Origin: a virus
Taxonomy: Duplodnaviria > Heunggongvirae > Uroviricota > Caudoviricetes
Direction: 5' to 3' (one strand)
Virus record (IMG/VR): IMGVR_UViG_3300042256_000013
Coordinates: 160,001 to 224,000 of that record
DNA: 64,000 bases
Part shown: piece by piece, positions 52,238 to 54,538 of the stretch
How the letters are laid out: each line of letters opens with the position of its first letter
Numbering within the stretch: position 1 is the first letter of the stretch
Notes under the pieces: generated by a model
Told to the model about the DNA's origin: nothing
Database searches by the model: none
What the model saw: only the letters and a program-made list of their open reading frames with translations
Program-made: the position numbers and the translations under genes

Positions 52238-53092
52238 ATGAATAAGATGAACCCTTTATCCAAGTATACTAAAGTAGAAGTACTTTACACTAAGCTTGTG
52301 AGTAATAATGTAATTCCTTACCCATCTGGAGTATTGAATAATGAAACAGTTGAATGTGGTATTTGTGCTCGTTCAGCACGTGATGAACTTATGTTTAACA
52401 ATCCAGATGCATTGATTAATGGTGAAGCAGTATCCAGCGTTATTGAAAATTGTGTTCCAAATATTGCTGATGCCCGGAAACTTTATGTACCAGATGTAGA
52501 ATTACTATTGATTGGTATTAAAATTGCAACAAAAGAAACTTCATACAATATTGAAGTTGAATGCCCTAATTGTGGTTATCATGGTGCATTTGAACGTAAT
52601 CTTGAAGCACTACTTGCAAGTGCTGAATTACTGGAAGAACAACCAGAATTGCTTCTTGAAGAAGTTGGTGGTTTACTATTGAAATTTAAACCGCATACAT
52701 GGGAAGAACATTCTGCATTTAGTCAGAAAATGTTTATTGAACAAAAGAAAGCTCGTGGTCTTGAGCAAGCAGAATTATCTGATGAAGAAAAAATGAAGCA
52801 CTTCAGTGCTATTTTCGAAATTATGACTCAATTGAGTTTTGATATGACAGTCGCTAATATCGACTATATTGAAACTGCTGATGGGATTAAAGTATCTGAC
52901 CGTTCATTTATTGCAGAATGGCTTGGACAACAACCAGCATTTGTACTTCGTCAAATTCGTGACAAAGCTGACTTTATTAACAATACTGGTATTAGTCATG
53001 AAATGGATGTTGGATGTTCTGAATGTGGTCATGAATGGACACTGGAGAATCTTCAATTCGATCCTAGCAGTTTTTTCGTACAAGGCTTCTAA
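52238..53092 (+). CDS. Baseplate hub assembly protein (T4 gp26-like)
   Basis: NPLSKY, ARDEL...NPDALING, DVELLLIGIKIAT, CPNC and CSEC pairs, FDPSSFF; ATG at 52238. Confidence 0.75.
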   Translation: MNKMNPLSKYTKVEVLYTKLVSNNVIPYPSGVLNNETVECGICARSARDELMFNNPDALINGEAVSSVIENCVPNIADARKLYVPDVELLLIGIKIATKETSYNIEVECPNCGYHGAFERNLEALLASAELLEEQPELLLEEVGGLLLKFKPHTWEEHSAFSQKMFIEQKKARGLEQAELSDEEKMKHFSAIFEIMTQLSFDMTVANIDYIETADGIKVSDRSFIAEWLGQQPAFVLRQIRDKADFINNTGISHEMDVGCSECGHEWTLENLQFDPSSFFVQGF

Positions 53093-53289
53093 TGGCTGAT
53101 GCTCAAGAAACTAAGCAAGAAATAGCAGACCTACACTTTAATTGTGAAGAGATAAAGAATGGATTATTGGAGGTTTCTGTATATATCTCCAATACGAGCT
53201 ATGAAATGCTCTTGAATATGCCTGTAACAGATCGTGATCTGCTGGTGAAGCAATACAATAAAAAGGTCAAAAAAGAAAACAAGCAATAA
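53092..53289 (+). CDS. Baseplate hub assembly catalyst (T4 gp51-like)
   Basis: SYEMLLNMPVTDRDLLV; coupled to gp26-like gene. Confidence 0.6.
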   Translation: MADAQETKQEIADLHFNCEEIKNGLLEVSVYISNTSYEMLLNMPVTDRDLLVKQYNKKVKKENKQ

Positions 53290-53320
53290 AAATTAACCAG
53301 CCTTTGTGCTGGTTTTTTGT
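53288..53320. terminator. Bidirectional terminator
   Basis: aaccagc-ctttgt-gctggtt with T tracts on both strands. Confidence 0.8.
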
Positions 53321-53978
53321 GTTCTAATTTTCTGTACTGTTTGAGATTTGCCATACTTCGTATGTCAAAGAATTTTCGTTGTTCTGTACTTGCTTTGCTG
53401 CGTACTGATCAACTCAATTCACTAATCTATCTGTACGTTTAACACGATTTATACTGACGAGATTTGGGGAGTTTATCATCCCCCGCTGGGGGAAGGATAT
53501 AAAAAAGTACTAATTAAAGTACTCAATTCTGACGATGATAGTCGTCGTTTATTCGCATCGTAAATTTCTATTTTTCAATAGAACGCAAGCGGGTTGCTCT
53601 GTTTCTCACTATTACGGTCTTATGCAACGGTCATGGGCTTACCATACTCAGTACTAAGTCTATGCGAACAAACTCAGTACCTATTCTTCTGGAATTTTGG
53701 ACGGATCAATATTGTATAAAATATGACCGCAAAATTCTTCTTCAGAAAAATTCCCTTAGCTATTTGGTAGGGGGCGATTCCTATATATCTATCGAGGAAG
53801 TTCTATCAGCTTAGTGAACTTCTTTATAGTGCCGTATTGCCGTGGGTGGTACAAACTATGCCATCTCCTAACGGGTGTCTTCTGCACTTCGAACTGCTTG
53901 AACTTCTCATTGTGCCAATTACATTTTCATCGGCGACTGTTTTTTGTCTACGTGTTCACGCAGCCAAGCAGGGTTGTC
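53295..53978 (-). ncRNA. Candidate large structured non-coding RNA (~680 nt), family not recognised
   Basis: Only long non-coding stretch in the window; own promoter (53984-54012) and terminator; many hairpins; GC above background; no minus-strand ORF of 60 aa or more. Confidence 0.6.
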
Positions 53979-53983
53979 CTATC

Positions 53984-54012
53984 ATTATACCAGATTTTTT
54001 AGAATCGTTCCA
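53984..54012 (-). promoter_or_regulatory. Phage promoter TGGAAC-N17-TATAAT driving the non-coding unit
   Basis: tggaac gattctaaaaaatctgg tataat. Confidence 0.8.
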
Positions 54013-54055
54013 CGATAATTGTAAATACTATAGAAGAACTTTTTGAGGAACTATA

Positions 54056-54538
54056 ATGAAAAGGGAAAGGTTAAAAAATTCGGTTGAGGCTGCCAAATAT
54101 AGGCAGGAATTACTTAAAAAACAAAAAGGATTAGATCCAATCACTAAAGAGAAAGTAACTGATCCAGTACTTGATCATAATCACAAAGGTGAACAAGAGT
54201 GTCGTGCAGTTCTTGATAGAACAGTTAACTCATTTGAAGGTAAAGTACAAAATGCGTTCGATAGATACATTAAGCATTTAACAACTAAAGATTTACCTAC
54301 TGTTTTACGAAATTTAGCAGATTATTATGAACAAGATTATTCTGAGACTAAAATTCATCATACAGCATTAACAATTGATGTTAAAAAGTTCAAAGCATTA
54401 CCGGCTGCACAACAAACTTCAATTCTTGAATCATTTAATGTTGTACCTGAGTCAAATAGTGCTAAACGAGCTAATCAAGCACGTAAATTAATTAAAAGTG
54501 GTCAATTAGATATGACACAAATAAAAAAAGGAGCCTAA
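54056..54538 (+). CDS. Recombination endonuclease VII-like (T4 gp49)
   Basis: Q.G.DPI...VLDHNH....RAVL.R..N..EGKV, LRNLADY; the zinc cysteines are missing. Confidence 0.8.
   Translation: MKRERLKNSVEAAKYRQELLKKQKGLDPITKEKVTDPVLDHNHKGEQECRAVLDRTVNSFEGKVQNAFDRYIKHLTTKDLPTVLRNLADYYEQDYSETKIHHTALTIDVKKFKALPAAQQTSILESFNVVPESNSAKRANQARKLIKSGQLDMTQIKKGA

Follow-up and report, generated by a model that had tools for sequence, protein, structure and literature searches.

Positions 53295–54012 of the stretch of DNA analysed here (the window, 64,000 nucleotides, which corresponds to bases 160001–224000 of a 371,104-bp jumbo phage sequence with terminal repeats) are supported as the gene of a large non-coding RNA that is compactly folded and transcribed from the minus strand, though direct evidence for a transcript is lacking. 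Covariation shows a fold of two domains that contains at least four pseudoknots and has GNRA and UNCG loop caps, and the copy in the window is the third paralogue of a family with five members in this genome. The original prediction had proposed a new large structured RNA running leftward from its own promoter. This main inference is supported by covariation, by G-U pairing and tetraloop signals, by the promoter and by the absence of an Rfam match, while the five paralogues and the clade-wide family had been missed.

Large and intricately folded RNAs without a known role are rare, and ROOL, GOLLD, OLE and a handful of further examples have each led into new biology. The family described here is as complex as these RNAs, is kept by a whole clade of giant phages and has been taken up by a bacterial island. 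Hosts of the clade include E. coli, Klebsiella, Salmonella, Erwinia, Pectobacterium and related bacteria. Some of these hosts are laboratory strains, and a number of the phages (121Q, RaK2, GAP32, CBB) are cultured, so that the function of the RNA is directly testable.

Among its relatives the phage stands closest to Erwinia phage Kaldavass and Xanthomonas phage XbC2; next come CBB, GAP32, Serratia BF, the Erwinia pEa_SNUABM phages, Yersinia fHe-Yen9-03/04, 121Q-like coliphages and Munch-like Salmonella phages. The locus is a gene-free stretch (53290–54055) between a plus-strand 65-aa ORF (53092–53289), itself downstream of a baseplate-hub gene, and a plus-strand Endo VII gene (54056–54538). 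All six frames are interrupted within it. The longest minus-strand ORF has 51 aa, in agreement with the earlier claim that none reaches 60 aa, and the plus-strand ORFs of 62 and 69 aa start with GTG/TTG and are not retained in orthologues. No open frame conserved across orthologues was found; the frames vary and indels are not multiples of three. The stretch had also been described as the only large gap, and this holds for the window, where it is the sole gap of at least 350 nt lacking an ORF of 80 aa or more. Outside the window the same criterion gives about 28 further gaps, four of which contain other paralogues (one of them only partly).

The composition of the locus is less distinctive than had been suggested. 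Its GC content (0.37–0.435 vs about 0.36 for the genome) is only slightly raised, and its minimum free energy z-score is −2.85. The AGTACT sites, listed in the original prediction as a feature of the locus, fail as such: the hexamer occurs 1087 times in the 371-kb genome (about 2.9 per kb), far above expectation at 36% GC. As a separate observation, AGTACT often makes hairpin stems genome-wide, in the window for example at 53507–53512 and 53519–53524 of the internal terminator described below. The suggested association with Endo VII or gp46/47 also failed, because the neighbours of the other four copies are unrelated to those of the window copy.

Folded structure and strand of the RNA

The family-conserved body of the RNA (53454–53979, minus strand) extends from the inferred start to the near-invariant CAAAUCUCGUCAG (53454–53466), with a core of about 475–525 nt that becomes about 680 nt with a 3' extension. 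The corresponding motif, CAAA[TC]C[TC]CGTCA, has exactly five occurrences in the genome, one in each copy, and the distance from the extended −10 promoter to the CAAAUCUCGUCAG tail on the same strand is about 500–570 nt across copies. Comparison with related jumbo phages revealed strong covariation across 46 homologues. The two halves of the RNA were modelled and counted separately since whole-length RNAalifold on a plain MAFFT alignment performed poorly, the variable hairpins being misaligned. For the 5' half (alignment A2), 92.6% of cells are paired, 38 of 49 pairs have changed on both sides, and covariation is 0.504 vs 0.156 when shuffled (reached in 0/500) and at most 0.098 when slid. The 3' half (alignment A3) gives closely matching values, with 92.0% of cells paired, both-sided changes in 37 of 49 pairs, and covariation of 0.498 vs 0.211 shuffled (again reached in 0/500) and at most 0.122 slid. 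Compensatory changes are thus found in 75 of the 98 modelled pairs, four pseudoknots being part of the model; RNAalifold alone recovers compensatory pairs at 25/34 (5' half) and 19/34 (3' half).

All structural elements are given for the minus strand, from the 5' end. The 5' domain (53749–53978) opens with a strand (53965–53971) that forms pseudoknot 1 with 53894–53900, which lies in the loop of the hairpin at 53891–53906. Between these strands are a variable hairpin (53948–53963) and a hairpin with a conserved GAAAAUGUA loop (53911–53939). Nested helices (53828–53888) follow, then a hairpin (53797–53822) whose loop (53809–53811) pairs with 53758–53760 in pseudoknot 2, a further hairpin (53768–53783) and an invariant AAGGGA (53751–53757). 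A pairing of AAGGGAG with a CUC of the tail was considered as well; it displays one-sided changes only and was kept out of the model.

A long peripheral arm (53681–53748) with a GAATTTTG...CAAAATTC stem carries the conserved module ACAAUAU.GAUCCGUCCAAAAUU. The arm is outside the counted model, and its stems covary between paralogues by eye. The module occupies this arm in paralogues 1, 3 and 5 and a different hairpin in groups 2 and 4, and it is present at both positions in the copy from an E. coli island. In two distant copies, moreover, the subdomain between the CCCG and CGG strands has been swapped for a C-UACG-G tetraloop. Such subdomain replacement and module relocation are typical of large RNAs with a tertiary architecture.

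The 3' domain (53531–53680) begins with a hairpin (53651–53680) whose loop (53662–53666) pairs with 53554–53558 in pseudoknot 4. A second hairpin (53632–53646), pseudoknot 3 (53624–53628 with 53593–53597), helices at 53612–53616/53559–53563, 53605–53609/53585–53589 and 53579–53582/53567–53570, and a 3' hairpin (53531–53546) complete it. Further downstream is a GC hairpin (53480–53493), CCCC-UGCG-GGGG with a UNCG-type loop in most copies and present in 46/46 aligned copies. Most of the helices proposed in the original prediction were retained as conserved, namely the GC hairpin, GACGA...TCGTC (53531–53546), TCTA/TAGA (53567–53582), the long arm (about 53690–53740), AAGTT/AACTT (53798–53821) and CATAC...GTATG (53352–53364); GTTGC/GCAAC (53593–53628) also held and proves to be a pseudoknot.

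Four independent signs agree on the minus strand as the one from which the structured RNA is transcribed. It carries the promoters, and U-runs follow covarying hairpins on it. The ratio of G-U to A-C in modelled pairs is 291:77 in its favour, and perfect 4-bp stems are capped by 24 GNRA and 22 UNCG loops vs two of their reverse complements. In the GC hairpin, C-G has changed to U-G on one side only (46 U-G cells), and these one-sided C-to-U changes fit G-U pairing in a minus-strand RNA only.

Promoter, terminators and inferred transcript ends

A minus-strand promoter at 53984–54012 had been predicted and is confirmed by comparison. It consists of TGGAAC (54007–54012), a 14-nt spacer and the extended −10 TGGTATAAT (53984–53992), and 48 of 50 family copies have the extended −10 (TGnTATAAT) at a fixed minus-strand position. 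The element 14 nt upstream of it reads TGAAAC or TGGAAC in the nearer clade. A simple sigma-70 scan missed the promoter because this −35 departs from the sigma-70 consensus, and in this respect the original description of a consensus promoter did not hold. The predicted start of transcription near 53977 remains plausible, as an inference from sequence.

The promoter is a member of the phage's own class and is not peculiar to the RNA element. There are 32 copies of the class in the genome, all on the minus strand, nine of them in the tRNA region. In CBB and GAP32 it has been described as a divergent RpoD-like promoter with the −35 TGAAACG (Buttimer et al., PMC5259590), which in CBB lies mostly ahead of DNA-synthesis genes (PMC5259590). 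As a side observation, ARAGORN reports a tRNA with a CUA anticodon (printed as tRNA-Pyl) at genome positions 96039–96112 among the 30 tRNA genes of the phage, just downstream of a TGAAAC-class promoter (96134–96162); such a tRNA would be of the amber-suppressor type.

At the far end, the predicted terminator was confirmed as a two-way intrinsic hairpin (53295–53314) that a terminator scan scores on each strand. It is inferred to close both the plus-strand 65-aa gene and a minus-strand read-through RNA of about 680 nt. An internal terminator-like hairpin (53501–53524, minus strand) follows the 3' hairpin at 53531–53546 and has AGUACU stems and then U6. Its stem covaries and is followed by a minus-strand U-run in the copy-2, -3 and -4 groups, and the copy-1 and copy-5 groups lack the hairpin and have only a U-tract at that place. 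Termination here would give an RNA of about 476 nt, a length inferred from sequence with ends that have not been shown. Two forms of the RNA, of about 476 and 680 nt, are accordingly no more than inferred.

Conservation extends past the internal terminator, through the GC hairpin and then the CAAAUCUCGUCAG tail. Still further downstream, a 3'-extension hairpin (53346–53368, minus strand) reads UUGAC, stem, GAAG loop, stem, GGCAAAU, and it is kept with compensatory change among copy-3 orthologues. In copies 2 and 4 the same 3' motif has a GGAG loop followed by an AUG, which forms the start region of the next gene. The genes downstream of these two copies are mutually unrelated and non-homologous, those downstream of copies 1 and 5 possess their own sigma-70 promoters, and in none of the annotated genera is copy 3 followed by a gene in the same direction.

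Two further features of the paralogues were observed in passing. In paralogue 2 (genome 128541–129000) the 3' UUGAC-hairpin motif is present twice (128976, 128567) and flanks a 122-aa ORF, which looks as if it had been inserted into or captured by the 3' extension, with the motif supplying GGAG and AUG. In paralogue groups 4 and 5 the inferred start is followed at once, within the first 45 nt, by an additional 5' hairpin and a U-run, which may be a 5' stabiliser or an early attenuator and which the window copy lacks.

A family in jumbo phages and one bacterial island

The five copies in the genome lie near 43.2, 129.3, 213.7 (the window copy), 297.1 and 359.3 kb, each in a separate ORF-poor gap and all in the same orientation. 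This shared orientation says little because 298 of the 335 large ORFs (89%) are on the same minus strand. The copies are 55–86 kb apart, and their smallest gap of 55–62 kb has p ~0.004 for five random points. The same spacing pattern is seen in CBB, GAP32 and fHe-Yen9-04; since the layout is inherited by synteny, the even spacing counts as one observation, that is, one evolutionary event. GC skew has no turning point at any of the five loci and simply tracks gene direction, so that it is little informative.

BLAST located 4–5 matching places per related genome. A nhmmer profile built from the five own-genome copies, which matches the window copy with an E-value of 4e-172, matched over its full length five times in each of five other genomes (25 copies). 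The 30 copies of these six nearer genomes fall into five groups, each with exactly one member per genome. Identity is 60–77% between paralogues within a genome and 70–96% between orthologues of different genera, and the duplications are therefore older than the split of the Rak2-like genera. Five distant genomes (121Q, TH47, EJP2, Munch and Hallingskeid) have four full-length copies each, 20 in total. Full-length E-values range from 1e-94 to 1e-184 in the six nearer genomes and from 4e-68 to 9e-116 in the five distant ones, and all 11 of the 11 Rak2/GAP32/CBB/121Q/Munch-like genomes searched copy by copy carry 4–5 copies. RaK2 itself has at least one strongly diverged, end-to-end match (E 2e-50). 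Phage records together contain about 300 copies, to which those in metagenomes are added.

Beyond cultured phages, an exact 23-base motif pair was found at 25 places in IMG/VR, on contigs longer than 100 kb except for one of 33 kb. In metagenomes the same pair occurs at 28 places, of which the profile confirms 26 (22 end to end and four cut by contig ends). An earlier IMG/VR pattern with 16 fixed bases proved insufficiently specific, most of its matches being due to chance. A Terriglobus MAG, the lone match in 185,579 GTDB species-representative genomes, was rejected as a family member when the profile did not confirm it, and no family match was found in a plasmid collection. A few short metatranscriptome or 'RNA-Seq' contigs from relatives or paralogues fall inside the element (three of four in X18, one in X19); such contigs cannot show expression, ends or strand, and are therefore evidence neither way.

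Outside phages, a single intact copy (family profile E 6e-124) with its own TGATATAAT promoter was found in each of two E. coli genomes among 5,426 complete ones. Both have it within one and the same island (about 10.7 kb, inserted next to ffs), which strains LR-29-1 and EEC_W5 carry. Besides the RNA gene, this island contains an IS3-interrupted tyrosine integrase, a number of genes of unknown function, an mSLOG-DUF4326/DUF488/dual-OB cassette and a resolvase. In tblastn against the phage, the island proteins gave only a shared DUF4326 domain, and apart from this domain the RNA gene with its promoter is all that island and phage share. Relatives of the 303-aa protein of the island were not found in GTDB representatives, and the 257-aa protein has relatives in nine species, none with the RNA alongside. 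No protein neighbour travels with the RNA, and hence no partner protein emerged from the island search. In a related Raoultella island the RNA body has been lost and the promoter and 3' tail remain.

Some side observations concern the islands. In the LR-29-1 island (L210:12900–13000), iteron-like direct repeats of TATCGATCGTT occur two to three times downstream of the RNA copy, in a 700-nt ORF-free stretch, and may be the island's own origin or operator. The three-gene cassette of mSLOG-DUF4326, DUF488 and dual-OB (L210:14981–16712) resembles a conflict or defence module, and a DUF4326 homologue is also encoded by the phage, near 305 kb.

No Rfam 15 family was found for any paralogue checked, and the literature searched contained no description of the RNA. 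Over the whole window there was no Rfam 15 match at gathering thresholds. At E<=10 the locus gave only chance look-alikes of sRNAs and terminators, with no ROOL or GOLLD match, and at E<=0.1 nothing was found for the four other own-genome copies (L002–L005) or for the RaK2, 121Q and Munch copies.

Possible roles of the RNA

The closest comparisons are with ROOL (RF03087) and GOLLD (RF01998), and loosely with OLE. These RNAs resemble the family in size (about 500–700 nt), carriage by phages and unknown function, and also in their many helices, pseudoknots and conserved loops and in having their own promoter and terminator. ROOL and GOLLD form homo-oligomeric RNA-only assemblies (PMC12286853). 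Unlike them, the present family has no covariance-model match, is not located beside tRNA genes, occurs as five old paralogues at fixed, evenly spaced places in each genome, and is confined to one clade of enterobacterial jumbo phages and one rare chromosomal island. A possible analogue is ncRNA004 of phage PA5oct (MK797984, 246116–246734), a 619-nt 'putative lncRNA' supported by RNA-seq (PMC7318152) from a distant relative of the Rak2-like phages. It is likewise ORF-free with a sigma-70-like promoter ahead. Homology is not shown, and the PA5oct regions with ncRNA001, 002 and 004 (ncRNA003 not being included) have no nhmmer similarity to the family (best E 2.4). It may be added that ncRNA004 (L208:1560–2300) is preceded by TTGACA, 17 nt and TAAACT, and ends in a GC hairpin.

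On balance we lean, with moderate confidence, towards a stand-alone, stable, trans-acting RNA of the ROOL/GOLLD kind, a function that is inferred by analogy only. In this proposal, host RNA polymerase would start near 53977 at the TGAAAC/extended −10 class of promoter, the same class that precedes the phage tRNA genes. Some transcripts would stop at the internal hairpin and U-run, at about 476 nt, and others would pass through the GC hairpin and CAAAUCUCGUCAG tail to the two-way terminator, at about 680 nt. Made together with tRNAs and replication genes, the RNA would act in trans during middle infection, serving as a stable RNA with a structural or catalytic role or as the RNA component of a particle (cf. 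ROOL, GOLLD, OLE), and the paralogues may supply dose or distinct isoforms. This reading is favoured because copy 3 is conserved no less than the other copies despite lacking a co-directional gene downstream, because the island captured the RNA gene alone, and because the fold far exceeds the needs of any such cis element. Against it, a trans-acting RNA leaves the even spacing (p ~0.004) unexplained, and the conservation of copies 2 and 4 running into the start codon of the next gene hints at a cis role. The analogy with ROOL and GOLLD, moreover, rests solely on size and complexity, with no partner protein or target found.

The best rival is a structured origin primer, in which the copies would mark five evenly spaced replication origins; it is improbable, yet still live. 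A fold like that of ColE1 RNA II would keep the 3' part (G-run hairpin and tail) hybridised to the template, and the hybrid would be processed into a leading-strand primer, as in the R-loop origins oriF and oriG of T4. The family resembles ColE1 RNA II and the T4 oriF/oriG transcripts in its length of about 500 nt, in being transcribed from a promoter, in a fold that could govern hybrid formation at the 3' end, in its G-run near the 3' part and, as in T4, in having several sites per genome. It differs from them in being far more complex and conserved, and the T4 origins share no such sequence among themselves, unlike the five paralogues. In favour of this rival are the spacing of the five copies (smallest gap 55–62 kb, p ~0.004), with the same layout in CBB, GAP32 and fHe-Yen9-04, the G6 run and conserved tail downstream of the folded body, and the position of the promoter class mostly ahead of DNA-synthesis genes in CBB (PMC5259590); T4 origins use middle promoters. 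The small integrative island that carries only this phage element also fits, as satellites do this with cis-sites of their helper. Against it, four pseudoknots and many invariant loop bases are far beyond the needs of any known primer RNA, the terminator-like hairpin precedes the G-run, and there is no G-rich skew along the RNA. The lack of a GC-skew turning point at any copy also counts against it, only weakly as skew follows gene direction. The shared orientation is unremarkable (298/335 large ORFs), and the spacing is one event inherited by synteny. The oriF-style origin that the original prediction offered as an alternative is thus neither confirmed nor excluded.

A giant cis-acting leader is less probable again than the origin primer. 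In such a leader the fold would sense a signal, set termination at the internal hairpin and control the downstream gene, whose ribosome site would lie within the conserved 3' hairpin. This idea is supported by the internal terminator, which comes immediately behind the fold in three of five groups, and by the conserved block of copies 2 and 4 that reaches a GGAG-loop hairpin and the AUG starting the next gene. However, copy 3 is equally conserved although no annotated genus has a co-directional gene after it, the genes after copies 1 and 5 have their own sigma-70 promoters, and those after copies 2 and 4 are unrelated to one another. That the locus has no functional RNA and is instead a gene in decay, a defunct mobile element or a group of clustered small ORFs is all but excluded, for although some public records annotate 30–65-aa 'hypothetical proteins' here (others leave the locus empty) and the UE-S1 record marks a bare 'repeat_region', open frames differ between orthologues, indels are not in threes, 92% of modelled cells are kept paired by compensatory changes, and orthologous positions are fixed across genera.

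Besides the preferred reading of a stable trans-acting RNA, a bolder one can be formulated in which the paralogues are non-redundant. They would be either structured primers for five evenly spaced origins of a 350-kb phage chromosome, one of which the island copied for phage-driven replication, or components that assemble with one another into a multi-subunit RNA particle. Taken jointly this is unlikely, and either version accords with the constant copy number, the even spacing and the fact that each paralogue has long been conserved separately.

The family also calls for a correction of annotation, as spurious small 'hypothetical proteins' have been annotated within the RNA gene, on the wrong strand, in several records. 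In the Kaldavass record (L011:3031–3674; likewise L161 and L162) three to four such proteins lie opposite the RNA strand; being unconserved, they are likely to be false gene calls.
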